NCBI GenBank assembly: GCA_016194795.1
Contig: JACQAX010000029.1
Coordinates: 1-39,179 of the forward strand
Direction of reading: 5' to 3'
DNA from: Deltaproteobacteria bacterium
GTDB lineage: Bacteria; Bdellovibrionota; UBA1018; UBA923
DNA: 39,179 nucleotides
Shown here one piece after another: positions 2,691 to 38,080 of the stretch. The first letter of the stretch is position 1, and each line of letters begins with the position of its first letter. The notes beneath the pieces were generated by a model. That model saw only the letters and a list, made by a program, of their open reading frames with translations. It was not told the DNA's origin and made no database searches. Position numbers and translations under genes: made by a program.

Positions 2691-2859
2691 CGATTTGTAA
2701 TCGCTTACATACTCCTGAAAATAAAAGACTAATTTCCAGCCACCGATTTTTACGACGGGCGGAAAAAGCCGCGTACAATCTTTTTTAACGCATCGAATCA
2801 AAACAGGCACACCGGCAGATTGGGGCCGGTCTTGTACGTCAGTACGGAGGGTGGCCGCC

Positions 2860-2958
2860 ATGATGCAGAATAGACTGAATCTCTTTAAAGCACTCCTGCG
2901 CGTGGTCGTTCCGGGTGCCATCGTTTTCCTGGCCGCGACGGCGGCCGAAGCGTTCGCG
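2860..2958 (+). other. Sec-type signal peptide of the giant RHS protein
   Basis: MMQNRLNLFKALLRVVVPGAIVFLAATAAEAFA|KD has a basic n-region, a hydrophobic core and an A-x-A (AFA) cleavage-type site. Confidence 0.7.
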
Positions 2959-5900
2959 AAAGATCGCTTCAACATCCAAATTTCTCCGTCGATCGCAAAC
3001 GGCGTCATCGAAGGCCAGAGCGAAACCTTCACGTTGAAGGAAGTTCTGGCGCGTGGCCCTTCGCCTAAGAACGAAGACGACGATAGCGACGACTCCGACG
3101 ACGACCGCCCGCCGAAAGGCCCTCGCTGGCTTGCCGAGTACGTTTGGAATGGCACGGTCGTCGGCACGCAGGGACCGCAGAGCCTCGCGGTGGGGCAGGG
3201 CTTTGATTTTACGTACTCGACGGCGCGCCTGCATCCGGCGAGCGCGGGCACGTCCAACACGTTTGTCGTCAACGTGTACAAGGTTCACGGAAAAAAGGAC
3301 AAGCGAAGCCTCAAGCAGACGAGCTCGTATACCGTCGCCGTCCAGCAAGACCAGGTTAAGCCGGTCTTCGCGTGCAGCTCGTTTCCGCTCTCGAACCCTT
3401 ACGTCCAGAGCGCTCCTCAGATTCAATGCACGCTCAGCGACTCGCTTGGTTATCTCGACACGATGGGCGCGGGCTCGATTCTCCTCGACGGCGTCGATGC
3501 CACTTCGAGATTTCAGATCACGCCGTCGGGTACCGGTGTCTGGGTATCGACCTATCTTATTACGGGTAACCTGAACCCCGTGCCTGAAGGCGCGCACGTC
3601 CTGACGCTGGCTCGTGGAGCCGACCTCGCCGGAAACCAGGCGGCGCCGATCTCTTTCGGTTTCACGATCGACCGTACCGCTCCGCTGCTCACGTTTGTCG
3701 GTGGAACGCACGATCACGTCCTGACGAACCAACGGAGCTTCGCCGTCAACGTCGCCGTGAATGACGCGAGCCCGACGATTACGACCATCCTGCTCAACGG
3801 CGCTTCGGTGTCGACGTCGCTGTCGGCGTTTCCCAGCGCGACCGTGACGCTCGCCGAGGGAGCCAACGTCGTCGAGGTTCAGAGCGTGGACAAGGCCGGC
3901 AATGCCGCCGCTCCGCTCCGCCTCACCGATCTGGTTCTGGATACACAGGCGCCGAGCCTGGCTTCGCTCGCGCCGACTTCGAATAGCGCGGTAACCGGTC
4001 CGACGTTTACGGTGTCGGGCACCGCGTCCGAGCCCCTGAGCTCGGCCATGCTGGGGACGTTCGCGCTCACCCTCAGCCCCGACAAGAAAAGTTTCTCGGG
4101 GCAGGTGACGGTTCCCGGCTCTGGCCCGTTTCAGGCGAGCCTGGCGCTGGTCGATCTCGCGGGCAACAGCTCGAGCTCGAGCGTCGCCTACAACGTCGTC
4201 GTCCCACCGCCGTTCGCGATTTCAGTCGATTCGCCGAAAAACGGCTCGACCTCGGGCACGCGCTCCATCGCGATCAGCGGTTCGGGCAATCGCCCACTTG
4301 CCGGAGCGACGGTGAACGGCCTGCCGCTTTCAATCGCCGGAAACTCTTTTTCGGGCACGTTCAATGCTCCGTCCGACGGGCCGTTGAGCCTGGCGATCGT
4401 CGCGAGCTCGTCCGACGGTGCGACGGCGAACGCGAACCTTTCGATTCAAGTCGTCTCGGCGTCTCCTTTGGCGCTGACGAACCTGTCGCCGGCCGACGGC
4501 GCGACGGTTCAGGGGCCCACCTTTCCCGTTTCAGGGCAGGCCAATCGCCGGCTCGCGTCGATCACGCTCAATGGCCAGCCGCTCACGATCGCGCCTGACG
4601 GCGTCTCGTTTAGCGGAAGTTTCACCGTCTCGACCGGCAGTACCGGTAGTACCGGTACGGACTCATGCCCGGTCAACTATTCGTGCGGCCCCTATGCCGG
4701 TGGTCCCGTATCCACGGGCTGCCAAGTGCTCAACGGTATCACGCTCGCTTGCCCGAACAACCCGAGTTGCGACCCGATCAGCGGAAAATGTTCCAACGCG
4801 AGCACCGGCACCTGCGATCCTTCGGTTCAGACCTGCGGGCCAACTTCGCTTGCCAACTGCACGGTCAACGCGAACTTCTACGTCTGCCCGATCGGAAACC
4901 CCGGCGTTCCGAGCAACCCAAGCCTGCTGCCGCTCACCTGCACGATGCAGGGCGCTTATGTTTATTGCGCGATTTCAGGTGGCCCGGTCGCGCCCTATCC
5001 CGGACCGGGCACGACCCTGGCTGATTGCAGCTTCGCGCCGAACTCGGTGCTTTGCACTCTCGACGCTTCAAGCGGCAGCGCAAGTGGCAGTGCAAGTGGG
5101 AGCGGCACCCCGACGCCGATCGTGCTCACCTGGTCCGCCGTCGACGTGAACGGTGGCTCGATCAACGTCGTCACGCACGCCAACGTCCTGCCCGCCGCCG
5201 GCGGGCCGACGTTCGATATCGCGGTCGACTCGCCACAGCCCAACGCAACGCTTACCTCGCTCACCATTCCGGTAAGTGGCCACGCGACGGCTCCGATCGG
5301 GACGATCAACCTCAACGGCCAGTCGCTCCAGCTCAGCGCCGACAAGATGAGCTTCAGCGGAACCTACACCGCTCCGGGCTTTGGCCCGCTGACCCTTTCA
5401 TTTTCGGCGACCGCGCTGGTCGGAGGCGCCGGCGCCGGCGTTGCGGTTCCGGTGACGATCAGTAATGGCGGCGGACCGGGAGGCCTCGCGATTTTCGTAA
5501 CCGCTCCTCAGCAGGGCGCGATCGTCAACAGTGGCCCGTTGACCGTGAGCGGTCACACCAATAACCCGGTCACCAAAGTGTTCGCCAACGGCGCGCCGAT
5601 GCAGCTCGACGGGACAGGAATGAGCTTCACGGGTTCGATCAACGTTCCGCCCACGTCAGGCCCGTTCAATATCCAGCTCCAGGCCACCGATGGCGTCAAC
5701 CAGGCGTTCGCCTCGATCACCGTTCAGGTCGGCTCGGGTGGCACGGGTGGTCCGCCGCTCAGCCTCGCCATTCTCAGCCCGTCGTCGGGCCAGCAGATTT
5801 CCGGCCTTGCCGTCACGATCAACGGGCAGGCAAACACCGTGCTTTCGAGCATCGCGGTCAACGGCCAGTCACTTACGATCGGCGCGGACGGGACGAGTTT

Positions 5901-8900
5901 CTCGGGCACCTACACGGCCCAGGCCCAAGGCAACCTCGCGCTGAACTTCCAGGGCCAGGCGACGAACGGGTCGTCGGCCCAGACGTCGGTCTCCGTGACC
6001 GTGGGCACCGGCATCGCCCTGATCGTCTCGGCGCCCACCGGCGGCGTGATCTCGACCCAGACTTTTCCGGTCAGCGGCACGACGAACGCGCCGATTTCCA
6101 GCATTACGGTGAACGGTCAGCCGATTCCGATCGGCGCCGACCGCGTAAGCTTCTCCGGAACGTACACGGCCGCAAGCAACGGCCCGCTGAGCTTGGATTT
6201 CGAGGCGCTGCTCACCAATGGCGTGTCGGCCTCCAAAACGGTTTCCGTCACCGTCGGCCCGCCGGTCGTACTCACCATCACGAGCCCGACGCCGAACCAG
6301 GCGTTCTCTTCGTTCAATGTCCCGGTGAGTGGTCGCTCAAGCGTGCCTCTTTCAATAATAACGGCCAACGGACTGCCGCTCACGCTGGGCCCGGATCAAA
6401 TGAGCTTTTCGGGGACGTATGTTGCTGGAGCCCCGGGCTCGCAGGGCATCCTCGTCAGTGCCATCTCCGTGGACGGAATCAAGGGGTCCGAGACCATACC
6501 GATCGTCATCAATGGGTCGGTCACGCCGTCGCTCGCGATCAAGATCACCGACCCGACGCCCGGTACGATCATTCGCCCGGGAACGACCTTCACGTTGGGC
6601 GGCACCACGACCGCTCCCGTCGTCAGCGTCACGGCCAATGGCCAGCCCCTTACGATTTCCGCCGATCAGCAGAGCTTCAGCGGACAACTCACCGCGCCTC
6701 TCACCGCCGGTGGCTTCCAGATCACCGTCGTCGCGCGGGACAGCTCGGGCCGTACCGCCACCACGCTCGCCAACCTCCAGGTCACGCAGCTGACGATTGC
6801 ATTCGCCGGGCCGAACGGCGGGCTTTCCGACGGCCTGGTGCTTTCGCCGGGCCCGCTGGCGATTCAAGGCAGCTCAAACTTTCCGCTCTCGCAGGCGACG
6901 GTCAACGGGCAGCCGCTTTCCGTCGGCGTCAACAACGTCGCGACGGCCTTCGCGGGCACGATCAACGTTCCTTCTTCGCCCATCACGTTTCCGCTCAACT
7001 TCAGCTTCACCGACACGTTCGGCGACACGCTGACGCAAACGCTTACGGTGTATGCCGTCTCGACGCCGGGGCCGACTCAAGACCTTCCGCTTCTGTCGCC
7101 CGCGGCTTCGACGAGCCACTCCGTGCAATCCTTCCTGGTGGCGGGACGAACAAACGTGGGCGTGACGGCGTTGTTGGTCGACGGCCAGCCTCTGAGCGTC
7201 GCTCGCGACGGGCAGAGCTTTCACGGGCTTTACACCACGTTCGCGCCGAACGGCGCGTTCACGGCGACGTTCGAGCTGATTCTCGGCTCCAACGCCTCCA
7301 TCCGAGTGCCCGTGAGCTACACGATGAGCGGGCTGGGGATCGCGTTGACGGGGCTTACGCCGCCGCCGGGAGCAAGCTTCCTGCCGCAGAGTTTCACGCT
7401 CTCGGGGCAGACGAACCAGGACGCAAAGACGGTTCAGGGCGATGCCTACGCGCTCGCGGTCTCGATTTCGGAATATCTCTCGCTTGTGGGTCCGGCTCCG
7501 GAGTCGCTGCTCCAGCCGCTCGTCTACCGGCGCGCCTTCAGCGGCTCCTACACGGCCCAGTCGGGGCAGATCACGACGAATATTCGGCTCACGGATTCCG
7601 ACGGCACGATCGTCACGGTGCCGATCAACTACTTCGTGGGCACGGGCCCGCTTAAGGCGAGCGGCGTCTCGTTCGCGTCACTTTATGACATCACCCCGAC
7701 GAATGGGTCGGCCGTGGCCAGCGGCCCGGTCATCATCCAGGGCAAGTCGACGGTTTCGCTAGCGTCGATTTCGGTGAACGGAATGCCGCTTTCGCTCGTC
7801 GGACACCAGGGTTTCTCCGGCGGAATCACGCTCACGTCCACGGTTGACGCGGGGACGAGCGTGTTCGCTCCCACAGGCGACCCGGCGGCTCAGGTGCTCG
7901 TCTTCCATGCGACGACCTCCAGTGGAGACAGCTTCGACCAGAGCGTCACCCTCGAGGTTCAAAATGCCCCGCCGCTCGCGTTCGCGAACCTTTTGCCGAA
8001 CGACCAGACTCCGATCGAGGATCTCGGCTCGCAGCCTATTTCGGGCTCGGCGAACATCCCGCTCGCGCGGCTGTCGGGCACGGTCGCCAACGGAGCAGGA
8101 ACCGGCGACTTGCCCCTCTTCCTGTCGCCCGATGGCCTCTTCTTCACGGGCAGCTTCGATCAGAACTCGGGCGCGGATGCGAACGTGTCGCTCTCGTTTG
8201 CCGCCACCGACATGTTCGGCCGCAATCTCCAGCGTTCCGTGACCGTCCCGCTCGACAAGACCCCGCCCGTGCTCGCGCTCCAACAGCCGGCGCCGGGTGC
8301 GTATCTCAACAGCCTCACGAACACGATCGCGGGCTCGTCGGATCGGCCGCTTGCCTCGGTGCTCGTCAACGGCACGGTGTTCCCGACGCTCGAGCAAAGG
8401 GCCTTCTCGCTTAGCTATGCGTCGGCGTCCGACGGACCGGTCTTGGTCGGGGCGACGAGCGTCACTGGCGGCGTACGGCCGCCCTCGTTGGCGTTCACCG
8501 TCGACACCACTCCGCCCGTGCTCGCCACGGTCACCCCGGGCGATGGCGCCTCGTTCGACGCCGTATTTCGAACCTTTCTCATCACCGGGCGCTTCGACGA
8601 GAACGTGGTCTCGGCGACCGTCAACGGCCTGGCGTGCTCGATCGGGGACGACGCGTTGTCGTTCAACGCGAACGCCACCGCGCTGACCGACGGGCCCCTC
8701 GATCTCCACTTCGTGTTCACCGATCGCGCGGGAAACGTCGCGCAAACCGACGTGAACGTCGTGGTCACGCAATCGGCCCTGAACGGAAATCTCGTGAGCG
8801 TGCAGCCGGTGCCGGGATCGACGAATCTGCGGATCGTCGGCGCTCCCGGCGCGGCCAAGGCCGGAAATACGGTGAACGCGAGCAGCGGAATCTTCACCTC

Positions 8901-11900
8901 CGGTTCGGCCGTCGCGGCCGATGACGGAAGCTTCGTGATCGCGCTTCCGCTATTTGCCCAGGCCGCGGTGTGGACGGTAAACCAGGTCTCGGGCCGAAAC
9001 GACTCGACGACGGTTTACTTCGGCGCGGGGGCCGGCACGAGACTGTCGGGTACCGTGAAGGACACGAGCGGCAACCCGCTCGCTGGCGTCACGGTGAGCC
9101 TTGCCGGTCGAAACGTGCAGGCGCTGACCGACTCGAATGGGGTCTTCAACTTCGTCGACCCGGCCACGGGAAACCAGACCCTGGTCGTCGACGGCGGCAC
9201 CGTGCCGCAGCCTTCGACGGGGCCCAATCGCGTTTTCTCGAAAACTTCGGTCGCGATCAACGTCGGCCTGGCGCAGGCCACCGTCATCAGCCGCCCGATC
9301 TTTCTCGCGCCGATCGTGATGGACGGCTCGCAGACGCCGGTCTCGGCGACGTCCGGCACCACGGTCACGAGCCCGGCCGCTCCTGACGTCTCGCTGACGA
9401 TTCCGGCGGGCGCGGCGACGTTCCCGAACGGCGCCACCTCGGGTGTCGTGTCGATGAGCACGATCTCGTCGCAGTTCTCGACGATCGAGCCCATGAAGTT
9501 CGCCGCCCCCAACAACGTGATCGCGCTCGAGCCTTCGGGCACGAAGTTCTCGGAAGACGTTCGCCTCACCGTGCCCAACGACAACCAGCTGCCGGAGGGA
9601 ACCGACGTCGTCATTCTCTCGATGAACTCGACCAAGGGCATCTGGGAAATCGGCGGCGCCGGCACCGTCGACAGCGGCGGCCGCACCATCACGACCAAGC
9701 CCAATATGGGCATTCGCCACTTCAGCGTGGTCTACGCGACGCCGATCGGCCCGAAGATCGGCCAGATCGGCGCGCAAGACCGCCCGGGAGCCGACACGTT
9801 CAATGGCGCTCTTACGACCGGCATCACGCTTCCGAGCTACAAGTCGCTCGGCCAGAGCATCGCGCCGTCGCTCGTCTACAAGAGCAGCTGGGCTCGCCCC
9901 ACGGCGATGTTCACCAACATGATCGACGTGCCGAGAAGCGACATCACGCTGGACTTCACGCAGGTGCTCGCTTCGCAGGAGCACGCCTATAACGTGACCG
10001 ACCACGAAACCGCGCATGGCTGGATCGAACCCGACTTCATCACGGCGCAGTTCCTGACTACCGGCCTGACGAGCGACGTGGCCACGATGACGGGTCTGCC
10101 CAATCAGGCGACGGTCAGCTACGCGCTCGAGCTCGCGCCGCCGGCCGGTTCCACGCCGGTGCCGGCCGCGGGCGGCTACCTCGCGAGCGACTCCTACCCG
10201 TATCTCTCGCACTGGGAGCTGCACCTCAAGCAGATGGTGCTGCGCACGAGAGAGGTCGTGCTCTGGCGCGCCGACACCGGCGCCCAAAGCATCATCCGGC
10301 AGGACAGCTGGGGCGAGACGCGCCAGCTCGAGAAAGTTTTCCCGTCCGACTTCCAGGGGCTGCTCTACGTCCAGAACCAGACGCAGTCGAGCGCGGGGCG
10401 CGGCTGGCGCGTGGGTGGCATGCAACGCATCGTCAACACCTCCAACGTGCGGGCGATGGTCGAGGAGGCCGATGGCTCGCTTACGGGCTATTCGCAGAAC
10501 AACACGATCACGACGCTCTTCAACGCCGACGGCACCGGCGTCGATCTGAACAGCGGCACCGACTTCACGGCTTATCCCTATGCCACCGTTGAAACCGGAG
10601 TGACCGTCGCGCAGACCGACCTCACCGCCGGGACCAACGCCATTTCGAGCATCGCCACGCTTGCCCGGCGCTTCAGCGCCCGCGTGCTGGGCTGGGCCTG
10701 CTTTGATTCGACCTTCAACGGCAACGTCCTGTGCTGGTCGGGCGGACACTCCTTCGACGTCGACCGCACGCTCTCGCACATGCTCAGGCTTCCGGACGGA
10801 CGGGTGTTCGCCGTCGACTCGCGCGGCAGCCAGGTCTTGCTGATCAACACCGACGGTACGCAGACGATTTTCGCCGGCACCGATCGCTTGCCGCACACGT
10901 ACTATTCCACGCCGAGCTCGCTTTGGGACAACAGCACCAACGTGACGCACACGAGCTGCGCCAACGCGGTCCAGGTTCCGTGGGTGAACTGGTCGGGCCA
11001 GCAGTTCGTCGTGCCCCCGACCTCGAACACGGTGGCCGCCGACACGTTCACCGACGCCGACAACCTCGCCGACCTTCGCCAAAAGATCGACCTGGGCACG
11101 TTCACTTTGGATAACCTTTCGGGCGCGCAGAGCAGACCCGACGGCTCGTATCCGGACTCGGGCTTTCAGGTCGGCCCGTCGAACACCGATTCGATGGGCG
11201 CGTATCGGCAGTGCTCGAGCGGTGTTCTTCCGGATCGCGGCTTCTCGGGCGACGGCGGCGCGCCCTCGCTCGCGCGCCTGAACAATCCGCTGAGCGTGGC
11301 GCCGGGGCTTGGCACCTCGATCCTGATCGTCGACACGGGCAATAACCGCGTGCGCCAGGCCGATCTCGTCAACAACGTGATCACGACCATCGCCGGTAAC
11401 GGCACGAGCTTCGACAACGGCGACGGCGGCCAAGCCCTCCAGGCCGGTCTTTTTCACCCACGCGCCGCGGCCTACGACGTTCAGGGCAACCTCTATATCT
11501 CGACCGAGAACGGCTACATCCGCAAGGTCGACCAGGCTGGCGTGATCTCGACCTTCGCCGGTCTGCCCCAGTCGCTCGGCGGAACGTTCGGCGAAGGTCT
11601 GCCGGCAACCCAGATCATCCTGCAGCGGCCCACGGGCCTTGCCGTCGACAACGTCAACGGCTACCTCTACGTCGCCGACACCGGCTCGGACGTCATCCGC
11701 CGCATCGACTTCCTGACGCAAAGAGCGGTGACAGTCGCCGGCAACTTCACGCCGGGCTACTCGGGCGACAACGGGGCGGCTCTCAACGCCTCGCTCTCGA
11801 GCCCGCTGTGGATCGGCCTTGATCCGAATCAGAACTTGCTCATCGCCGACACGGGCAACCAGCGCATCAGGAAAGTGACGTTCCAGACGCCGGGCGCTGG

Positions 11901-14900
11901 TGGGCAGGTGGTCTACGCCCCGAACGCGCCGACCGACCACAGCACTCTTGCGAGAAACGGCGATGGCTCGTGGGTGCGCACCTATCGAAACGGCACCACG
12001 GTGCTCTTCGACGTGAAGGGCCACCAGATCGGGTCGCAGGACCGCGTGGGTAGAGCCACGGCCTATCAGTACGACAGCGACGGCAACATGACTGCGTTCA
12101 CCGATCCGGTGGGGCGCACGACGACGTACTCGTATTCGGGTGGCTTGCTGGGGTCGATCACCGATCCGGCCGGAAGGACGACGCAGTTCACTTATGCGAA
12201 CGGGCTGCTGACTTCGGTCGTCTTCCCGGACGGGACACAACGCCAGTACGGTTATGACGGTAAAGCTTTGTTGAATGCCGAAACCGACGAGCGCGGTTTT
12301 ACGACGCATTATGTTTACAATGACTTCAACCGCCTGACGGCGGTTACGAAGGCTGACGGATCGACGGTGACTGTGAACGACTCGGCTTCGGCTACGGCCA
12401 TGAACTCGTTTGCGGTTGGGCCGAGTGGTGGGACGCTTAAGACCTTTGGCGTCGACAGCGGCCAAATCTACGACGGCATCAGGGACGCGAGAAGTTTTGA
12501 GACAAAATTCTTAAAAGACACTTCGGGCTACATCACAACGATCGTCGATGCAAACGGGCAGACGACGACGGTAGATCGAAATGCCAAAGGTCAGCCTACG
12601 TTGATCACTCGCCCTGACGGCACAACGGTGTCATTCACGTACGATCCCGCGACAGACGATCTTATTGCTCAGTCTGACTCGGCTTTGAACGTGTCGACGA
12701 GCCAGACTTACGATGCCTTTGGAAACATTCTTACCCAAACCGACGGGCGAGGTTTCACGTCCGCAACGACTTACGACCCTGCGACAGGCCTCGTCCTTTC
12801 CAAAAGCGATCCCCTGGGGCATGGGCCAAGCTATCAGTACAACCAACTTGGGCTTCCCACGATAATGAGCAACGCTCTCGGAAAGTCGACGACTACGCGC
12901 TACGACGCTTTCGGAAACGTGAGCTCGATCACTGACCCGCTAAATCATACAACGAGCTATGTACGAGATCTCGCTGGGTATACGATTTCGATGACTAATG
13001 CCAAGAATCAGACGACGCAGTATCAACACGATTCATTCAATCGTCTGAGTTCGGTCACGAATCCGAAAAACGAAACCACAAGCTACATCTATCTCGCAAG
13101 TGGTCAACTTTCGCAGATCAGCGACCCTCTCGGTGGAGTTACGAGTTTTCAGTACGACGTTCTTGGCCGGCTGAGCTCAAAAACAGATCCGCTTGGCATG
13201 ACTACGAGCAGGGGATACGACGCCAACGACAACGTGGTTCAGGAAAATGATCCTAACAGCAACGTGAAGACGTACGTCTACGATAACCTGAATCGACTCA
13301 TTCAGAAGACGCTTCCCGATAACGTAATCACGATGAGCTACGACATTCGCGGAAACATGCTCCAAGCCGCGAACCAGCAAGGCGCCATAGGCTTCGGCTA
13401 TGATGTCGGCGGAAGGTTGACCTCGACCACGACCTCGGGGTCGGGATTGCCGACTGCGACGTTGGCCTTCCAATACGATGCCAATGGCAATCGTCTCAGC
13501 ATGACCGACCCGGTTGGCGTGACGAGCTACAGCTACGATCAGGCCAGCCGCCTCACGAGCCTTACCAATCCTAAAAACGAGAACTTCATGTTCGGGTTTG
13601 ATGCGGCCAATCGACCGACTTTGATTATTAGGCCCGGAAGTAGTACGGCCCTCGCGTTTGACGATGCGAATTTCTTGACGTCGATCGTGCACTCGAATTC
13701 CAGTGGAACGCTTGCATCTTACGGCTATGTGATGGATGCGATCGGAAACCGGACTGCGGTGACGACGCAGGCTGGGACTCAGAACTTCGACTACGACAAT
13801 AACAGCCAGCTTACGAGTGCTAGTAACCCTGAAGCCGCCGCTTTGAATGCAAACGAGACGTTTACGTATGACTCGGTCGCTAATCGAAAAAGCGATCAGA
13901 ACGGCGCGTACAACTATGACGGGAAAAATCAGCGCCTGACCGAGGACTACGGCTATACGTATACCTACGACAATAATGGAAACCTGATCGCGAAGTCCCA
14001 AAAGGGGCTAAACGGTGGGACGACGAACTTTTATTATTCGTCTGAAAACCAGCTCCTGAGCTTCAAAGTCTACGACCCGACATTCAGCTCAAGCCAGCCG
14101 ATCAAGGAAGTGACTTACAGCTACGACGCAATCGGTAGGCGCGTTTCCAAGCAAGTCGTTGATCATTCTGCTGAGACTGACGTCACCAAGACCTTCGGGC
14201 GCCGCTACGTCTATGACGGCCAGGAGATTCTTCTTGAGTATGATGCGGGCAACAATCTGCTCGCGCGTTACACGCACTCGGGTCTTCAAAGCGACGACGT
14301 GCTTACCGTCGACGTGAGGTCCGCCGGTGTATCCGTGGGCCTTGCCCAAAATACACAGACGTACACCTACCTGAAAGATGCGCAGGGATCAGTGCGCGAC
14401 GTTGTCGATACATCCGGAAATAAAATTCAGCACTACATCTATACTGCGTTTGGCGTGCTCCTTGGAATCCAAGACGCAAATGCCGCAGATGTGACGACAA
14501 GTCCTCCGGTTCGGACGAGTTATACATTCACGGGACGGGAGCTCGATAGCGAGAGCGGAAATTACCACTATCGCGCGCGCGTGTATGATCCGCGTACTGG
14601 GCGCTTCATCCAAAAGGACCCTAGCCCTGGAGTTTTGAAACTCCCAATAACTTCGAGCAATACATACATTTATAGCGCCAATAGCCCGACGAACTTTAAG
14701 GACCCGTCGGGAAGAAATTTCATCGGTTCCGCTATCGGGAATATCTCGCATGCGCTTCTTGAAACAATTGCAGGGCCCTTAGGCGGAGTTTTCGGTGCGG
14801 CTGGCTGGCATGCTTTTCAGGGTGGCACAATTTGGAAGGACTTCCTCGCAGCTGCCGCCGTAACTCTGATTGGCATAGCCATCGCAGCGGCACTACCGGC

Positions 14901-15246
14901 GGAAGCAGTAGGAATTGGGACTTTCATCGCGGTTGGCGCTCTCGTAGGCGCCGTATCGGGAGCGCTTTCTGCGTGGATTACAGGGCAGAAACTTCCTGGC
15001 ATCTTGTTAGGCGCAGGGCTGGGTGCTTTGGCTGGGGCAATTGGCGCAGTGATTGGTCACCCGGAAAGTGGCCTTACGGTCGTTCAGAAAGTAATCGGGA
15101 ACGCCGCTGTCGGCGCCCTGCTCTCACCGCCCGATATCCTCCCGGAAAAGGAGCAGGAGGATCTCGATCGTTGTTTTCTGCCTGGACCAGCTCCCATGCA
15201 GGATCCAAATGACCATTTAGATTTCCCCGCTGCATCATACCTGTAA
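2860..15246 (+). CDS. giant secreted RHS/YD-repeat polymorphic toxin (Ig-like repeat stalk, Cys-rich insert, CarboxypepD_reg-like, NHL, YD shell, RHS core, Gly-zipper C-terminal toxin domain)
   Basis: Single uninterrupted ORF 2851..15246 (4131 codons in the track, which starts at GTG 2851). GGAGG at 2846-2850 lies 9 nt before ATG 2860, so 2860 is the preferred start. Domain motifs read directly from the translation are listed in the sub-features below. Confidence 0.95.
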   Translation: MMQNRLNLFKALLRVVVPGAIVFLAATAAEAFAKDRFNIQISPSIANGVIEGQSETFTLKEVLARGPSPKNEDDDSDDSDDDRPPKGPRWLAEYVWNGTVVGTQGPQSLAVGQGFDFTYSTARLHPASAGTSNTFVVNVYKVHGKKDKRSLKQTSSYTVAVQQDQVKPVFACSSFPLSNPYVQSAPQIQCTLSDSLGYLDTMGAGSILLDGVDATSRFQITPSGTGVWVSTYLITGNLNPVPEGAHVLTLARGADLAGNQAAPISFGFTIDRTAPLLTFVGGTHDHVLTNQRSFAVNVAVNDASPTITTILLNGASVSTSLSAFPSATVTLAEGANVVEVQSVDKAGNAAAPLRLTDLVLDTQAPSLASLAPTSNSAVTGPTFTVSGTASEPLSSAMLGTFALTLSPDKKSFSGQVTVPGSGPFQASLALVDLAGNSSSSSVAYNVVVPPPFAISVDSPKNGSTSGTRSIAISGSGNRPLAGATVNGLPLSIAGNSFSGTFNAPSDGPLSLAIVASSSDGATANANLSIQVVSASPLALTNLSPADGATVQGPTFPVSGQANRRLASITLNGQPLTIAPDGVSFSGSFTVSTGSTGSTGTDSCPVNYSCGPYAGGPVSTGCQVLNGITLACPNNPSCDPISGKCSNASTGTCDPSVQTCGPTSLANCTVNANFYVCPIGNPGVPSNPSLLPLTCTMQGAYVYCAISGGPVAPYPGPGTTLADCSFAPNSVLCTLDASSGSASGSASGSGTPTPIVLTWSAVDVNGGSINVVTHANVLPAAGGPTFDIAVDSPQPNATLTSLTIPVSGHATAPIGTINLNGQSLQLSADKMSFSGTYTAPGFGPLTLSFSATALVGGAGAGVAVPVTISNGGGPGGLAIFVTAPQQGAIVNSGPLTVSGHTNNPVTKVFANGAPMQLDGTGMSFTGSINVPPTSGPFNIQLQATDGVNQAFASITVQVGSGGTGGPPLSLAILSPSSGQQISGLAVTINGQANTVLSSIAVNGQSLTIGADGTSFSGTYTAQAQGNLALNFQGQATNGSSAQTSVSVTVGTGIALIVSAPTGGVISTQTFPVSGTTNAPISSITVNGQPIPIGADRVSFSGTYTAASNGPLSLDFEALLTNGVSASKTVSVTVGPPVVLTITSPTPNQAFSSFNVPVSGRSSVPLSIITANGLPLTLGPDQMSFSGTYVAGAPGSQGILVSAISVDGIKGSETIPIVINGSVTPSLAIKITDPTPGTIIRPGTTFTLGGTTTAPVVSVTANGQPLTISADQQSFSGQLTAPLTAGGFQITVVARDSSGRTATTLANLQVTQLTIAFAGPNGGLSDGLVLSPGPLAIQGSSNFPLSQATVNGQPLSVGVNNVATAFAGTINVPSSPITFPLNFSFTDTFGDTLTQTLTVYAVSTPGPTQDLPLLSPAASTSHSVQSFLVAGRTNVGVTALLVDGQPLSVARDGQSFHGLYTTFAPNGAFTATFELILGSNASIRVPVSYTMSGLGIALTGLTPPPGASFLPQSFTLSGQTNQDAKTVQGDAYALAVSISEYLSLVGPAPESLLQPLVYRRAFSGSYTAQSGQITTNIRLTDSDGTIVTVPINYFVGTGPLKASGVSFASLYDITPTNGSAVASGPVIIQGKSTVSLASISVNGMPLSLVGHQGFSGGITLTSTVDAGTSVFAPTGDPAAQVLVFHATTSSGDSFDQSVTLEVQNAPPLAFANLLPNDQTPIEDLGSQPISGSANIPLARLSGTVANGAGTGDLPLFLSPDGLFFTGSFDQNSGADANVSLSFAATDMFGRNLQRSVTVPLDKTPPVLALQQPAPGAYLNSLTNTIAGSSDRPLASVLVNGTVFPTLEQRAFSLSYASASDGPVLVGATSVTGGVRPPSLAFTVDTTPPVLATVTPGDGASFDAVFRTFLITGRFDENVVSATVNGLACSIGDDALSFNANATALTDGPLDLHFVFTDRAGNVAQTDVNVVVTQSALNGNLVSVQPVPGSTNLRIVGAPGAAKAGNTVNASSGIFTSGSAVAADDGSFVIALPLFAQAAVWTVNQVSGRNDSTTVYFGAGAGTRLSGTVKDTSGNPLAGVTVSLAGRNVQALTDSNGVFNFVDPATGNQTLVVDGGTVPQPSTGPNRVFSKTSVAINVGLAQATVISRPIFLAPIVMDGSQTPVSATSGTTVTSPAAPDVSLTIPAGAATFPNGATSGVVSMSTISSQFSTIEPMKFAAPNNVIALEPSGTKFSEDVRLTVPNDNQLPEGTDVVILSMNSTKGIWEIGGAGTVDSGGRTITTKPNMGIRHFSVVYATPIGPKIGQIGAQDRPGADTFNGALTTGITLPSYKSLGQSIAPSLVYKSSWARPTAMFTNMIDVPRSDITLDFTQVLASQEHAYNVTDHETAHGWIEPDFITAQFLTTGLTSDVATMTGLPNQATVSYALELAPPAGSTPVPAAGGYLASDSYPYLSHWELHLKQMVLRTREVVLWRADTGAQSIIRQDSWGETRQLEKVFPSDFQGLLYVQNQTQSSAGRGWRVGGMQRIVNTSNVRAMVEEADGSLTGYSQNNTITTLFNADGTGVDLNSGTDFTAYPYATVETGVTVAQTDLTAGTNAISSIATLARRFSARVLGWACFDSTFNGNVLCWSGGHSFDVDRTLSHMLRLPDGRVFAVDSRGSQVLLINTDGTQTIFAGTDRLPHTYYSTPSSLWDNSTNVTHTSCANAVQVPWVNWSGQQFVVPPTSNTVAADTFTDADNLADLRQKIDLGTFTLDNLSGAQSRPDGSYPDSGFQVGPSNTDSMGAYRQCSSGVLPDRGFSGDGGAPSLARLNNPLSVAPGLGTSILIVDTGNNRVRQADLVNNVITTIAGNGTSFDNGDGGQALQAGLFHPRAAAYDVQGNLYISTENGYIRKVDQAGVISTFAGLPQSLGGTFGEGLPATQIILQRPTGLAVDNVNGYLYVADTGSDVIRRIDFLTQRAVTVAGNFTPGYSGDNGAALNASLSSPLWIGLDPNQNLLIADTGNQRIRKVTFQTPGAGGQVVYAPNAPTDHSTLARNGDGSWVRTYRNGTTVLFDVKGHQIGSQDRVGRATAYQYDSDGNMTAFTDPVGRTTTYSYSGGLLGSITDPAGRTTQFTYANGLLTSVVFPDGTQRQYGYDGKALLNAETDERGFTTHYVYNDFNRLTAVTKADGSTVTVNDSASATAMNSFAVGPSGGTLKTFGVDSGQIYDGIRDARSFETKFLKDTSGYITTIVDANGQTTTVDRNAKGQPTLITRPDGTTVSFTYDPATDDLIAQSDSALNVSTSQTYDAFGNILTQTDGRGFTSATTYDPATGLVLSKSDPLGHGPSYQYNQLGLPTIMSNALGKSTTTRYDAFGNVSSITDPLNHTTSYVRDLAGYTISMTNAKNQTTQYQHDSFNRLSSVTNPKNETTSYIYLASGQLSQISDPLGGVTSFQYDVLGRLSSKTDPLGMTTSRGYDANDNVVQENDPNSNVKTYVYDNLNRLIQKTLPDNVITMSYDIRGNMLQAANQQGAIGFGYDVGGRLTSTTTSGSGLPTATLAFQYDANGNRLSMTDPVGVTSYSYDQASRLTSLTNPKNENFMFGFDAANRPTLIIRPGSSTALAFDDANFLTSIVHSNSSGTLASYGYVMDAIGNRTAVTTQAGTQNFDYDNNSQLTSASNPEAAALNANETFTYDSVANRKSDQNGAYNYDGKNQRLTEDYGYTYTYDNNGNLIAKSQKGLNGGTTNFYYSSENQLLSFKVYDPTFSSSQPIKEVTYSYDAIGRRVSKQVVDHSAETDVTKTFGRRYVYDGQEILLEYDAGNNLLARYTHSGLQSDDVLTVDVRSAGVSVGLAQNTQTYTYLKDAQGSVRDVVDTSGNKIQHYIYTAFGVLLGIQDANAADVTTSPPVRTSYTFTGRELDSESGNYHYRARVYDPRTGRFIQKDPSPGVLKLPITSSNTYIYSANSPTNFKDPSGRNFIGSAIGNISHALLETIAGPLGGVFGAAGWHAFQGGTIWKDFLAAAAVTLIGIAIAAALPAEAVGIGTFIAVGALVGAVSGALSAWITGQKLPGILLGAGLGALAGAIGAVIGHPESGLTVVQKVIGNAAVGALLSPPDILPEKEQEDLDRCFLPGPAPMQDPNDHLDFPAASYL
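3664..8950 (+). repeat. protein-level tandem array of about 16 Ig-like (bacterial Ig/cadherin-like) modules
   Basis: A ~90-100 aa unit recurs, ending in NG(Q/L)PL(T/S)I..D..SFSG(T/S)(Y/F)TA. Examples: KMSFSGTYTA, GTSFSGTYTA, RVSFSGTYTA, QMSFSGTYVA, QQSFSGQLTA, GVSFSGSFTV. Module boundaries look like DRTAPLLTF, DTQAPSLASL, DKTPPVLAL and DTTPPVLATV. The DNA copies are diverged, so this is not a nucleotide tandem repeat. Boundaries are approximate. Confidence 0.75.
4665..5055 (+). other. Cys-rich insert within the Ig array, followed by an SGSASGSASGSG linker
   Basis: 14 Cys in about 130 aa (SCPVNYSCGPY...GCQVLNGITLACPNNPSCDPISGKCSNASTGTCDPSVQTCGP...CTLD). The rest of the 4,100-aa protein contains only a handful of Cys. 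Confidence 0.8.
9034..9200 (+). other. carboxypeptidase-regulatory-like (transthyretin-like fold) domain
   Basis: RLSGTVKDTSGNPLAGVTVSLAGRNVQALTDSNGVFNFVDPATGNQTLVVDGG fits the CarboxypepD_reg pattern G.V.D..G.P..G..V.......TD..G.F. Confidence 0.75.
11268..11883 (+). repeat. NHL-type beta-propeller blades (at least 4 visible)
   Basis: Blade-like repeats: LNNPLSVAPGLGTSILIVDTGNNRVRQADL; LFHPRAAAYDVQGNLYISTENGYIRKVD; LQRPTGLAVDNVNGYLYVADTGSDVIRRIDF; LSSPLWIGLDPNQNLLIADTGNQRIRKVTF. Confidence 0.75.
12061..14100 (+). repeat. YD/RHS repeat shell (more than 25 YD motifs)
   Basis: Repeated xYxYDxxGNxxxxxD units, e.g. YQYDSDGNMTAFTD, QTYDAFGNILTQTD, TRYDAFGNVSSITD, FQYDVLGRLSSKTD, FQYDANGNRLSMTD, YSYDQASRLTSLTN. 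Confidence 0.9.
14107..14715 (+). other. RHS repeat-associated core ending in a cleavage-type motif
   Basis: RYVYDGQEILLEY...YTYLKDAQGSVRDVVD...YTFTGRELDSESGNYHYRARVYDPRTGRFIQKDP...YIYSANSPTNFKDPSGR. This matches the canonical RHS core end (YHYRARYYDPxxGRFxxxDP ... PxxxxDPxG(L)). The DPSGR motif is at 14701..14715. Confidence 0.85.
14716..15243 (+). other. variable C-terminal toxin domain: Gly/Ala-zipper hydrophobic, predicted membrane-inserting
   Basis: 176 aa follow DPSGR. They contain GPLGGVFGAAGW, LIGIAIAAALPAEAVGIGTFIAVGALVGAVSGALSAWITG, GILLGAGLGALAGAIGAVIG and VIGNAAVGALL, which are stacked GxxxG/AxxxG zippers, followed by an acidic/Pro tail. I saw no nuclease, deaminase or ADP-ribosyltransferase catalytic motif. 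Confidence 0.6.
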
Positions 15247-15268
15247 GATTTGATAGGATTGAGTTCAT

Positions 15269-15844
15269 ATGGAGATTCGAGACTTCAAAGTCGGCTTCGC
15301 GCGGGTCGTGTCATTACGAGGAAGTCTCGCCTATGTTGGTATCGTGTGGCTTAAGATTCAGCTGCTTTTCAACGGGATAATGCTTTTCGTTTTGGTCAAC
15401 AGTTTGGCGAATGACATGATCTCTATCCGAAGCCCACGCATTCCTATAGGTTTCGCTCTTTATGTCTTGGCTTTGACGCTGATTTTTTCGCCATTTCTTT
15501 ACAGGCGGATATACAGGTACGCGTTCTATTGGTTCCGGTTTGGGGAGAACGGTCTGGATCTTTATGAGGACAAAGACTGTAAGCGTCTTTGTCAAAATAT
15601 CCCTTACGACCGAATCAATTCATTCTATCACGTTAAGCCGAATTTCATTTGGAGCGATAGTCTGCTTCCGAAATCTACCCATGCAGACTGGGAGCAGACA
15701 TTTATACGCTACGATACGGCTGGAAATTTTAGTTCTGTCGCGAGTCTGGACCTTGGTCCGAAGACCCCTGCTGACGTTTCCAGCTTGGTAGCTCAGTTTC
15801 GAAGTCGATGTCCCAAGATAGCCATTCGACCGGGTAACGGCTAG
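15269..15844 (+). CDS. candidate cognate immunity protein (small membrane protein, 2 N-terminal TM helices plus soluble tail)
   Basis: 191-aa ORF starting 22 nt after the toxin stop, same strand. It shares the low G+C of the toxin 3' end. Hydrophobic segments: LAYVGIVWLKIQLLFNGIMLFVLVNSLA and IPIGFALYVLALTLIFSPFLY. I recognise no family. Confidence 0.6.
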   Translation: MEIRDFKVGFARVVSLRGSLAYVGIVWLKIQLLFNGIMLFVLVNSLANDMISIRSPRIPIGFALYVLALTLIFSPFLYRRIYRYAFYWFRFGENGLDLYEDKDCKRLCQNIPYDRINSFYHVKPNFIWSDSLLPKSTHADWEQTFIRYDTAGNFSSVASLDLGPKTPADVSSLVAQFRSRCPKIAIRPGNG

Positions 15845-35804: not shown

Positions 35805-35912
35805 CTTCAAGAACACCCGCAGAAACACCGCGAGAAACACGCCGAAGAACAGAAGGAGCGCGAGACTCGTGAGCCAGGTCTGGGGAAAATGGACGAGCGC
35901 CTGCGTTTTCAT
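35805..35912 (-). CDS. ccoQ: CcoQ-like single-TM segment (frame differs from ccoP; no nearby stop in its own frame)
   Basis: ATG 35912 overlaps the ccoNO stop (ATGA). [36 protein letters not shown] resembles CcoQ/FixQ. Beyond about 35805 this frame reads an R/S/T-rich string with no stop until 35556. Confidence 0.5.
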
Positions 35913-38080
35913 TTCGCGCCTCCCGCCGTTTTCACGGCGCCACTGTCCTCGACGGTGTGGCCCAGGCGCTGGAGATAGGCGATCAGCGCCACGATCTCCT
36001 TGTCGTCCATGCCCTTCGGCGCGCCCTGGCGTTCGAGCTCGGTGGCGATCGCCTTCGCGTCTTCGCGCGCGGCCGTCTCGGCACGCTCGATGTCGCGGTC
36101 CGAGTACGGCACGCCAACCGTGCGCATCACGGCGAGCTTCCTGGGCAGCACCGCGAAGTCGGTCTTGTCGCGGGCAAGCCACGAGTATTCCGGCATGATC
36201 GACTTCGGCGTCACCTCGCGCGGGTCGAGCATGTGGCGGAAGTGCCAGAGGTGCGGGTACTTGCCGCCCACGCGCGCCAGGTCGGGACCCGTGCGCTTCG
36301 AGCCCCACTGGAAGGGGTGGTCGTAGAGCGAGTCCTCGGCCGTCGAGGGCTTGCCGTAGCGCAGGAGCTCGTCGGCCATCGGCCGGATTTCCTGCGAGTG
36401 GCAGAGATAGCAGCCCTCGCGCACGTAGAGATCGCGGCCCGCGAGCTCGAGCGACGAGTACGGCCGCACCGTCACGTTGATCGGCACGTAGTTGTGCGCG
36501 GTCAAGGTGGGGAGCAGCTCGATCACCGTCCCGACGAGAATCGCGAGCACCGCGAGCGTCGAGAAGACCATCGGCAGGCCCTCGAGCGCCCGATGCGGCT
36601 TCTCCTCGGTGAGCATCTTCACGACGTCGGTCTTGAGCGCCGGCGCCTGCTGCGCCTCGGGCGCCACGGCCTTCGGGGCAAGCGCGATCGTCCGGGCGAG
36701 GTTGTAGGCCATGATGATGAAGCCCACGAGGTAGAGCGTGCCGCCGACGGCGCGTACCCAGTAGAGCGGCACGATCTTGATGACCGTTTCGATGAAGTCG
36801 GGGTAAACGAGCTTGCCGCTCGCGTCCATCGCCCGCCACATCATGCCCTGGGTGATGCCGGCCACCCACATCGATACGACGTAGAGGAGGATGCCGAGAA
36901 AGCCGGTCCAGAAGTGGGCGTTGGCCAGGCGCTCGCTATAGAGCTTCGTGCGCCAGAGCCGCGGCACGAGATAGTAGAGCATCGCGGCCGTGAGAAAGCC
37001 GTTCCAGCCGAGCGTGCCGCCGTGGACGTGGCCGATGATCCAGTCCGTATAATGGCCGATGGCGTTCACCGACTTGATCGAGAGCAGCGGGCCCTCGAAG
37101 GTCGCCATGCCGTAGAAGGTGAGCGAAGCGACGAAGAACTTGAGGATGGGTTCGGTGCGCACCCGGTCCCAGGCGCCGCGAAGCGTGAGCAGGCCGTTGA
37201 TCATGCCGCCCCAGCGCGGGGCCCAGAGGATGACGCTGAAGACCATGCCGAGCGTCTGCGCCCACTCGGGCAACGCCGTATAAAGAAGGTGGTGCGGGCC
37301 GGCCCAGATGTAGATGAACACGAGCGACCAGAAGTGGACGATCGAGAGCCGGTAGCTGTAGACGGGCCGGTTCACCGCTTTGGGAACGTAGTAGTACATG
37401 AGACCGAGAAACGGCGTCGTCAGGAAGAAGGCGACGGCGTTGTGGCCGTACCACCACTGCACGAGCGCGTCCTGCACGCCGGCATAGACCGGGTAGCTCT
37501 TGAAGAGCGTGACGGGGAGGTTGATCGAGTTCACGACGTGCAGCACGGCGACGGTCACGATCGTGGCGATGTAGAACCAGATGGCCACGTAAAGATGCTG
37601 CTCGCGCCGGCGCTGGAGGGTGCCGAAGAAGTTCACGGCGAAGGCCACCCACACGACGGTGATGGCGATCTTGATCGGCAGCTCGAGCTCGGCGTATTCC
37701 TTGCCGACGGTGATCCCGAGCGGCAGCGTCACGGCGGCGGCCACGATGATGAGCTGCCAGCCCCAGAAGTGAAAGTTGCTCAGGAAGTCGGAGTAGAGGC
37801 GGCTCTTGAGCAGCCGCTGCGTCGAGTGGTAGATGCCCGCGAAAATCGCGTTGCCGGCGAAGGCGAAGATTGCCGCGTTCGTGTGCAGAGGGCGCAGCCG
37901 GCCGAAGGTCGTCCAGGGGAGCCCCAGGTTGAGCTTCCAGTTGGCGAGCTGAAGCGCGGCCACGACGCCTACGAGCATCGCCACCACGCCCCACACGATG
38001 GTGGCGAGCGCGAACTTTTTGACGATCTCGTCGTCGTAGTAAAACGTTTCCATGACCTGCTTGTCGTTGTCGGTGCTCAT
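35909..38080 (-). CDS. ccoNO: fused cbb3-type cytochrome c oxidase subunits I and II (CcoN-CcoO)
   Basis: The 723-aa N-terminal ~470 aa is a heme-copper subunit I (12 TM; [27 protein letters not shown]). The C-terminal part is CcoO ([14 protein letters not shown]...[19 protein letters not shown]...W...H...P). Confidence 0.92.

Follow-up and report, generated by a model that had tools for sequence, protein, structure and literature searches.

What is the glycine-rich end of a giant RHS protein for, and does the small gene directly behind it belong to it? The question is raised by a 39,179-bp contig of a metagenome-assembled genome (MAG) labelled 'Deltaproteobacteria bacterium', the whole of which we refer to as the window, where a 4131-aa teneurin-like RHS/YD-repeat protein ends in a 176-aa C-terminal tip (CT) and is followed by an open reading frame (ORF) of 191 aa. 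A preliminary description had suggested a pore-forming or membrane-depolarising payload with a membrane protein as its immunity partner. Our analysis indicates that the locus is probably a toxin-immunity module of a polymorphic RHS/teneurin-like toxin with a membrane-inserting glycine-zipper tip. It has the components by which RHS/YD polymorphic toxins are recognized, namely a YD array, an Rhs core with a DPxG...DPxG motif, a hypervariable tip and an ORF immediately downstream as candidate immunity gene. The reading draws on the anatomy of the locus, the conserved cleavage motif, the polymorphism of the tips and the co-conservation of tip and ORF in other genomes. The features on which the argument turns are listed below (TM, transmembrane).

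2851..15246, + strand: giant teneurin-like RHS/YD-repeat protein, 4131 aa, the biggest ORF of the contig (MBI3541862.1)
14440..14715, + strand: Rhs-associated core with C-terminal plug and aspartyl autoprotease motif (TIGR03696, E 1.8e-17)
14716..15243, + strand: C-terminal tip, a predicted membrane-inserting glycine-zipper toxin, exactly 176 aa after DPSGR
14827..15057, + strand: TM-grade helices H2-H4 (CT 38-59, 67-89, 94-114), Eisenberg <H> 0.62-0.76, low hydrophobic moment
15124..15243, + strand: acidic, Pro-rich tail (CT 137-176), with 9 D+E, 2 K+R and 8 Pro
15269..15844, + strand: candidate immunity gene, 191 aa, its ATG 22 nt past the stop of the giant gene on the same strand

Anatomy of the tip and of the gene behind it

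The tip fills the space between the cleavage motif and the stop codon of the giant ORF (15244-15246), at the coordinates given for it in the preliminary description, and is rich in small and hydrophobic residues (A 18%, G 15%, L 12%, I 9%). It contains nine GxxxG motifs, a count reached by 0.7% of 2000 composition-matched shuffles, and 15 small-xxx-small-xxx-small motifs, reached by 2.4% of 2000 shuffles; the stacking of zippers therefore exceeds what composition alone would give. Three or four 19-residue windows score 1.8-2.3 on the Kyte-Doolittle scale, and a single-sequence AlphaFold model is all-alpha, with helices at CT 2-33, 38-59, 67-89, 94-114 and 116-136 and a short one at 144-154. 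The second to fourth of these are TM-grade, H1 and H5 are less hydrophobic than H2-H4 and have a higher hydrophobic moment, and H4 (CT residues 95-114 read GILLGAGLGALAGAIGAVIG) bears a GxxxGxxxGxxxG zipper, the cleanest of the tip. Pro-rich tails like the one that ends the window protein also close homologous tips.

The tip lies directly behind the putative autoproteolytic plug of the Rhs core. The match to TIGR03696 (NCBIfam Rhs_assc_core) ends at aa 3954, within DPSG; the protein contains YIYSANSPTNFKDPSGR, DPSGR occupies aa 3951-3955 (nt 14701-14715), and the plug motif reads DPSPG-x23-DPSGR with D3923 and D3951 as putative catalytic residues. In an alignment of the shell end from 23 relatives, the Asp of DPSG (D252), G255, P225 and G228 are invariant, the Asp of DPSPG (D224) is present in at least 90%, and conservation breaks off right after DPxG. 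In the Pseudomonas aeruginosa effector Tse5 the equivalent aspartates are D1141 and D1164, and the protein is cut between L1168 and I1169, one residue past DPxG; by analogy, a cut is predicted after R3955 here.

The preliminary description of the downstream gene as a membrane protein with two TM segments holds. Hydropathy analysis identified two hydrophobic segments at ~aa 22-46 and 58-77, which AlphaFold models as a helical hairpin with a predicted local distance difference test score (pLDDT) of 80-86, the remainder being below 50. Four K+R residues precede TM1, two lie in the loop and four just past TM2, a distribution that favours an N-in, C-in topology and would place the ~114-aa domain that follows in the cytoplasm. 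A PH-like fold for this soluble domain was considered, on the strength of a beta-beta...beta-beta-alpha order in the low-confidence model and a match of one homologue to PH_CERLI1 (E 0.094), and was set aside as unsupported, a hint only. No intrinsic terminator above chance expectation was identified past the ORF.

Neither partner could be assigned to a named family, as had been supposed from the sequence. Searches of Pfam, NCBIfam, PADLOC, PHROGs and PDB sequences returned no family for the ORF and no enzyme motif, enzymatic family or solved structure for the tip, consistent with a non-enzymatic payload. The Pfam glycine-zipper models (Gly-zipper_Omp, _OmpA, _YMGG and Rick_17kDa_Anti) did not match the CT or five family members at E<=1. 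The nearest NCBIfam model to the CT was NF053611 YiaD (E 0.37; its 10.5 bits compare with a cutoff of 175), which we regard as noise, and the profile libraries otherwise yielded sub-threshold hits of TM type for CT and ORF, such as ThsA at E 0.007. PDB searches with single sequences and family profiles of tip and ORF gave no match, tblastn of both against plasmids found nothing, and tblastn against the window found neither a second copy nor an orphan module.

Relatives of the tip-ORF pair

To compare shells and tips, we used the last 256 aa of the shell (nt 13948-14715) as query; related loci and tips carry our working labels (L013, P0006 and so on). The query retrieved 128 proteins, all of them short C-terminal RHS fragments or orphan modules. 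The closest shell relatives share 50-65% identity up to DPxG and are unalignable or very divergent beyond it. Their tips nearly all begin with a hydrophobic helix, and most consist of 130-200 aa of Gly/Ala zippers only, often with a Pro-rich tail. When one genome per species was scanned with the alignment of shell ends, 588 relatives emerged, and the ~36 closest of them (43-65% identity) came almost entirely from Bdellovibrionota MAGs (Bacteriovoracaceae, Bdellovibrio, Oligoflexia, Halobacteriovorax). At <=41% identity the relatives were mainly Nitrospira, Acidobacteria, Omnitrophota and other non-Bdellovibrionota, with two Bdellovibrio loci also present. Tips were scored as glycine-zipper and TM-like if they had at least five GxxxG motifs and one TM-grade 19-residue window:

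Near group (>=43% identity): zipper and TM-grade tips in 23/35, median GxxxG 8
Far group (<=41% identity): zipper and TM-grade tips in 3/39, median GxxxG 1

The groups differed both in proportions (Fisher p = 1.3e-7) and in GxxxG counts (Mann-Whitney p = 8e-9). The window tip is therefore typical of its RHS clade and no isolated oddity.

When the CT was compared pairwise with ~130 related tips, by BLAST and phmmer, no match reached significance, and only the comparison of profiles worked; because direct searches found no relatives, the case for homology is built on profiles. Aligned by hhalign to the profile of the L013, L014, P0005 and P0006 tips, the window tip scored 44.0 (probability 90.9%, P 1.1e-6, 89 columns, 37% identity), against means of 13-15 and a maximum of 29.9 for 400 shuffles and 17.6 for the reversed sequence. 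The alignment is colinear from the first helix through the Pro-rich tail, at 26-32% identity.

The downstream ORFs pointed to the same family. Among ~81 downstream ORFs searched with phmmer, the top matches to the window ORF were L014_imm (E 8e-4), L013_imm (8e-3) and L003a (0.05), which are exactly the ORFs behind one tip family (L013_ct, L014_ct and P0006, with P0005 as its fourth member). The four-way ORF alignment is colinear and comprises an N-terminal [DE]FK[IV]G, two TM segments, an 'F/Y-x-R/W-F…G-L/I…I-P…I' block and a C-terminal 'P-x-I-x-V/I'. With L014_imm the window ORF shares 26% identity; L013_imm and L014_imm, from the same array, share 25% with each other. Against the profile of L013_imm, L014_imm and L003a, the window ORF scored 45.0 in hhalign (probability 90.2%, P 1.6e-6, 111 columns); 150 shuffles of the C-terminal domain that kept the TM hairpin had a mean of 14.2 (standard deviation 0.95, maximum 18.3), and 74 other downstream ORFs, used as natural decoys, scored <=21.4. 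By profile comparison, then, the window tip is a remote homologue of the L013/L014/P0005/P0006 tips, and ORF 15269..15844 likewise of the ORFs behind them. Neither family has a Pfam or PDB match.

As both partners have profile homologues and these are adjacent, tip and ORF are co-conserved as a pair, which is kept in at least three other loci from two sources, an Oligoflexia MAG and a metagenome contig. Conservation of the ORF beside homologous tips had been set beforehand as a test of the immunity assignment, and the two profile scores together with adjacency in the relatives bear it out. The preliminary reading also came through on the two other points that computation could address, the lack of an enzymatic match for the tip and the presence of remote homologues of it in the corresponding place of other RHS proteins. 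In the Oligoflexia MAG (JADJXN010000002.1; L013 3858-5787), the pair forms an array in the order teneurin-like main gene, CT1, imm1, orphan RHS fragment, CT2, imm2, with imm1 overlapping the stop, a layout typical of polymorphic toxin loci. The immunity proteins of this array have the N-terminus MIKKEFKIGP in common despite only 25% identity. At L003 7561-8118, an immunity-like frame is open for 61 codons before its first canonical start (TTG 7744), and this stretch encodes TM helix 1, which indicates a non-canonical start or a sequencing error. Exact look-ups of the window ORF and of the giant protein on contigs returned nothing, scans of genomic and metagenomic contigs with the ORF as query, with tblastn for confirmation, revealed no close relative, and a metagenome scan with the L013/L014 immunity alignment was likewise empty.

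An N-terminal 2-TM hairpin followed by a soluble part of 70-130 aa, the architecture of the window ORF, also follows several other glycine-zipper tips:

L002 4320-4706: 2-TM ORF
L002 5535-6011: 2-TM ORF
L003, frame-0 ORF ending 8118: 2-TM ORF
L003 8349-8909: 2-TM ORF
L004 8421-9050: 2-TM ORF
L008 2202-2705: 2-TM ORF

The downstream ORFs of other relatives are 3-TM proteins with a Peptidase_S26 domain, or of signal-peptide or lipoprotein type. The latter types follow zipper or hydrophobic tips in L010, L017 and L022 (e.g. MFKKLVLNSIFALLFNMFGC and MKYILVMFTVFISTQCFA), so that there may be different kinds of immunity protein, working from the periplasmic side.

The related tips displayed further features. 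Four clade tips carry HExxH after a hydrophobic helix (P0002, P0009, P0018 and P0019, with HEYGH, HEFGH, HETKH and HEIGH), P0003 likewise has HEFGH in the shell-relative alignment, and these look like tips of a membrane-associated zinc-metallopeptidase type. A weak motif, G[GQ][NDT][IF][WL][EK], lies 21-49 residues past the cleavage site in about eleven tips with differing later sequence (P0006, P0008, P0009, P0011, P0015/P0024, L013, L014, L016, L025 and L042) and also at window CT residues 36-41. A hidden Markov model (HMM) built from the N-termini of clade tips scored the window tip above 1998 of 2000 shuffles, and the recurring motif may mark a shared membrane-insertion module. Orphan modules consisting of RHS core, glycine-zipper tip and immunity gene in Bacteriovoracaceae and on metagenome contigs (L001 5028-7820, L002 157-2949, L005/L006 and L004) adjoin mobile-element genes, either a trio of tandem tyrosine recombinase genes or IS66 TnpB/transposase genes. 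Orphan tip-immunity modules thus appear to travel on mobile elements.

A proposed membrane toxin, its precedents and its alternatives

From this anatomy we infer a course of export, cleavage, membrane insertion, ion conduction and protection. The giant protein would be exported through Sec and displayed on its long stalk of immunoglobulin-like (Ig) repeats, with the YD shell enclosing the 176-aa tip until the aspartyl-protease plug (D3923, D3951) frees it past DPSGR. Once in a target cell, the tip would enter the cytoplasmic membrane via H2-H4, flanked by the two less hydrophobic helices, and its GxxxG/AxxxG faces could let it pack or oligomerise into an ion-conducting assembly, with collapse of the membrane potential. 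The presumably co-transcribed 191-aa protein, in the inner membrane, would shield the producer by binding the toxin within the bilayer or at its surface. We propose pore formation or depolarisation by analogy, as a membrane toxin has precedents in Tse5-CT with Tsi5, the C-terminal domain (CTD) of a Bacillus teneurin-like protein (TLP), the ionophores of contact-dependent growth inhibition (CDI) and the staphylococcal toxin EsxX.

The closest of these is Tse5 (RhsP1, PA2684) with Tsi5 of P. aeruginosa, an Rhs-encapsulated pore-forming tip with a 2-TM immunity protein (PMC9637101, PMC10684867). The novelty implied by the preliminary description was thus overstated, the more so as a hydrophobic, membrane-permeabilising CTD is also known from a bacterial teneurin-like protein (PMC13018210). 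As is predicted for the window protein, Tse5 has an Rhs shell around a non-enzymatic, hydrophobic C-terminal fragment; the Tse5 fragment, of ~150 aa, combines TM and amphipathic helices, is freed by a DPxG...DPxG aspartyl autoprotease (a motif shared by the window protein), forms cation-preferring pores and depolarises cells. Tsi5 has two predicted TM segments, resides in the inner membrane and is encoded adjoining the toxin; the window ORF resembles it in architecture only, and has an additional soluble domain of ~114 aa. The carriers differ too. Tse5 is a 1317-aa effector of a type VI secretion system (T6SS) with a PAAR-like N-terminus and a VgrG partner, whereas the 4131-aa window protein has a Sec signal, an Ig stalk and TTR/NHL domains, and its catalytic aspartates are 28 residues apart rather than 23. 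The PDB chain of Tse5 used for comparison comprises the 1121-aa shell only, without Tse5-CT.

Bacterial TLPs resemble the window protein in their superfold of NHL and YD shell, a polymorphic ~15-kDa CTD past autoproteolytic sites, Sec signal peptides, N-terminal adhesion modules and a diverse gene directly downstream, which serves immunity in TLPs; such immunity genes are near-universal among them (PMC13018210). The CTD of the Bacillus inaquosorum protein BiTLP is hydrophobic, with a predicted TM segment, and membrane-associated (Nat Commun 2026, PMC13018210); it was toxic only if sent to the periplasm, upon which propidium iodide entered cells (PMC13018210). BiTLP comes from a Gram-positive, whilst the window belongs to a 'Deltaproteobacteria' MAG and has its nearest shell relatives in Bdellovibrionota, which is not one of the six phyla that the TLP survey lists (PMC13018210). 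The window signal peptide lacks a lipobox, in contrast to the signal peptidase II (SPII) signals predicted for Gram-negative TLPs.

CDI ionophores (the CdiA-CT EC93 family), polymorphic toxins at the C-terminus of their carriers, dissipate membrane potential. Five-helix bundles with a glycine zipper in helix 4 are predicted for them, and their CdiI partners are hydrophobic, highly polymorphic membrane proteins. Five long helices with a zipper in H4 are also predicted for the window tip, from a low-confidence model (mean pLDDT 53). CDI toxins are delivered by CdiB/CdiA two-partner secretion, are demarcated by VENN and have an N-terminal domain for entry by way of a specific membrane protein; none of this is present in the window system. 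LXG toxins of type VII secretion systems (T7SS), such as Staphylococcus aureus EsxX with ExiAB/ExiCD and also TspA and TelE, depolarise the membrane by a C-terminal glycine-zipper domain. EsxX is neutralised by membrane proteins from outside and by a soluble protein that sequesters the zipper in the cytoplasm; the window candidate combines a membrane hairpin and a predicted cytoplasmic domain in one chain, and a dual-compartment role for it would be speculation. LXG toxins are Gram-positive T7SS substrates without RHS shell or autoprotease, and no homology was detected.

Several results weigh against a membrane toxin of this kind. The tip showed no homology to Tse5-CT, although the test was indirect (phmmer against 1.84 billion cluster representatives, in which the tips of non-representative members are invisible). 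The same search returned the window tip itself alone. Neither it nor a word-indexed search revealed CDI ionophore similarity, the context moreover being RHS and not CdiA, and the word-indexed search, of 5.8 billion proteins, was empty for tip and ORF alike. The CT and the tip-family profile did not match the full-length BiTLP chain 9pt5_A (2237 aa) at E<=10. The homology of the pair rests on profiles from four tips and three ORFs that are compositionally biased or membrane sequences, and the single-sequence AlphaFold models are of low confidence, with a mean pLDDT of 53 for the tip and 51 for the ORF overall. No T6SS or other delivery genes (no PAAR or VgrG) were found among the scanned window ORFs. 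Finally, the ORF is absent from the public protein collection, which does include the giant protein of the same contig (MBI3541862.1); the deposited annotation therefore apparently left it uncalled.

A first alternative, which we consider quite unlikely, is that the zipper region is a membrane-entry or translocation module and that killing is the work of something else, such as a partner protein or the short C-terminal segment. There is a precedent in Agrobacterium Tde1, where a glycine zipper is reportedly required to translocate a DNase and not to kill (PMC10240207). Within the clade, the HExxH tips join a hydrophobic helix to that motif, and the motif shared by otherwise different tips, together with the HMM rank of the window tip, is what a common entry module would leave. 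Past the helices of the window tip, however, only the 40-residue acidic Pro-rich tail remains, which leaves no room for an enzyme, and the L013, L014, P0005 and P0006 tips likewise consist only of helices and a Pro-rich tail. Such helices suffice for toxicity in Tse5-CT, EsxX and the CDI ionophores.

It is equally improbable, in our view, that the tip is a membrane anchor or self-associating surface element with the 2-TM protein as its assembly partner, whether in aggregates like those of CdzC/CdzD in Caulobacter or as a tail that fixes the released fragment in the producer envelope. Glycine-zipper proteins reportedly can make surface-associated aggregates (PMC5380434), teneurin-like proteins have been proposed for cell-cell interaction, and both the Sec signal with a long adhesin-like stalk and the lack of an encoded delivery system among the scanned ORFs would suit a surface role. 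An anchor is less easily reconciled with a tip that sits past a conserved autoprotease motif, within a presumably closed shell. Hypervariable tips on a conserved shell, matched and co-varying downstream genes and orphan modules are what marks a conflict of toxin and immunity and not a structural anchor, and when a hydrophobic CTD of a teneurin-like protein was tested, in the only such case, it was toxic from the periplasm.

Read as a membrane-inserting toxin with its immunity protein, the window system is in function and architecture of the Tse5/Tsi5 and BiTLP kind, and is not a demonstrable member of either family. What is new is a putative tip-immunity sequence family that has no name, a clade of teneurin-like RHS proteins, centred on Bdellovibrionota, in which such zipper tips are enriched, and an immunity architecture of a 2-TM hairpin with a predicted cytoplasmic domain. 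A more far-reaching reading, tentative and as a whole rather doubtful, would join several propositions. There would be a distinct Sec-exported teneurin-like RHS lineage, centred on predatory Bdellovibrionota and specialised for glycine-zipper membrane toxins, which was passed horizontally to a high-GC 'deltaproteobacterium'. An N-terminal helix with a GG[ND][IF]W-type turn would be its generic membrane-insertion module, to which a pore-forming bundle or else an HExxH protease could be attached. A new class would be formed by the immunity proteins, each joining a 2-TM hairpin to a small cytoplasmic domain, which is possibly PH-like, for neutralisation in two compartments, and the system may serve predation besides kin competition.

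Membrane-depolarising tips are a small and poorly catalogued minority of polymorphic toxins, and as there are no Pfam families for them, annotation pipelines miss them. Here one RHS clade, mostly of predatory Bdellovibrionota, is dominated by glycine-zipper tips, and provides a compact, testable set of variants with tips of 150-200 aa and immunity proteins made of a 2-TM hairpin and a soluble domain. These could serve the study of how zipper helices leave an RHS shell, enter the bilayer and are neutralised there, and could help to ask how Sec-exported teneurin-like toxins of diderms reach their targets. The current picture of RHS toxins is extended by these data, not altered.

Carrier protein, base composition and neighbouring genes

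The domain order of the 4131-aa protein is signal peptide, Ig-like stalk, CarboxypepD_reg/TTR, teneurin-type NHL, YD shell, Rhs core and CT tip. The segments ahead of the core are as follows (SPase I, signal peptidase I):

2851..2958, + strand: probable Sec (SPase I type) signal peptide, MAAMMQNRLNLFKALLRVVVPGAIVFLAATAAEAFA, predicted from the translation, lipobox Cys absent
11416..11706, + strand: teneurin-type NHL segment, aa 2856-2952 being the best-matching stretch (PF25021 TEN_NHL, E 1.5e-14 to 1.7e-16)
12049..14439, + strand: YD/RHS repeat shell, ~aa 3067-3863 (RHS_repeat E 7e-85, 13-16 repeats; NF041261, TIGR01643)

The Ig-like repeats span ~2000 aa (Glucodextran_B, Big_3_3 and Big_13 matches). 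In Pfam, CarboxypepD_reg (TTR-like) matched at E 7e-9 and TTR_TEN1-4 weakly (E 0.09), and PF01436 NHL also matched ahead of the YD shell. The PDB teneurin-like proteins 9pt5 (E 3e-16) and 9ifo (E 2e-15) match directly after the NHL segment. Over the shell, PF05593 matched 16 stretches (E 3.7e-73) and TIGR01643 had E 7e-59, and the PDB sequence search retrieved the T6SS Rhs shells 7q97 and 8qja and Tse5 (8cp6), with Rhs chains reaching E 9e-40. TEN_NHL, the RHS repeats and the PDB matches to Rhs and teneurin-like proteins together identify the carrier, at the level of its sequence, as a probable bacterial teneurin-like RHS protein.

Base composition changes within this gene. From about 0.65, the guanine-plus-cytosine (GC) fraction drops to 0.50-0.56 over nt ~12,200 to ~16,000, a region that takes in the greater part of the YD shell together with tip and ORF; the ORF itself has 0.44-0.47, the value is back to about 0.63 at the convergent SNF2 gene, and the contig elsewhere has 0.62-0.68. 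The closest shell relatives are low-GC Bdellovibrionota. The drop, together with the low-GC homologue L010 from Bacteriovoracaceae, suggests that most of the shell was acquired along with tip and ORF, horizontally or by C-terminal displacement, and not the tip alone. That the module is instead an inactive relic or an assembly artefact, either a chimeric join or a decaying horizontally acquired cassette with an unexpressed ORF, is very improbable: the GC drop, the missing ORF in the public protein set and the origin of the contig from a MAG speak for it, but host GC is regained on both flanks at gene boundaries, the ORF stays open for 191 codons in DNA richer in AT, with homologues in the equivalent position elsewhere, and a chimera in particular seems unlikely since the frame is intact over 4131 codons through the shift and L010 is colinear and 56% identical over aa 2758-4039, a stretch that includes the shift (near aa 3150), which makes the gene around the shift one homologous unit.

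Very long opposite-strand or alternative-frame ORFs lie inside 2851-15246, for example 8950..12465 on the - strand (1171 aa). We judged these to be artefacts and not genes, their Arg/Gly/Ala/Val-rich translations fitting stop-poor high-GC DNA. The other scanned genes of the window are housekeeping genes, encoding DEAD-box and SNF2 helicases, LigB, an OmpA-family protein, a patatin, a PAS histidine kinase, FixG and a cbb3 oxidase. The last of these is encoded at 35912-38080 on the - strand, where a single 723-aa ORF has both COX1 (CcoN-like) and FixO (CcoO) domains and would, from its domain content, represent a cbb3-type oxidase subunit formed by fusion; genes for FixG and DsbD_2 adjoin it.

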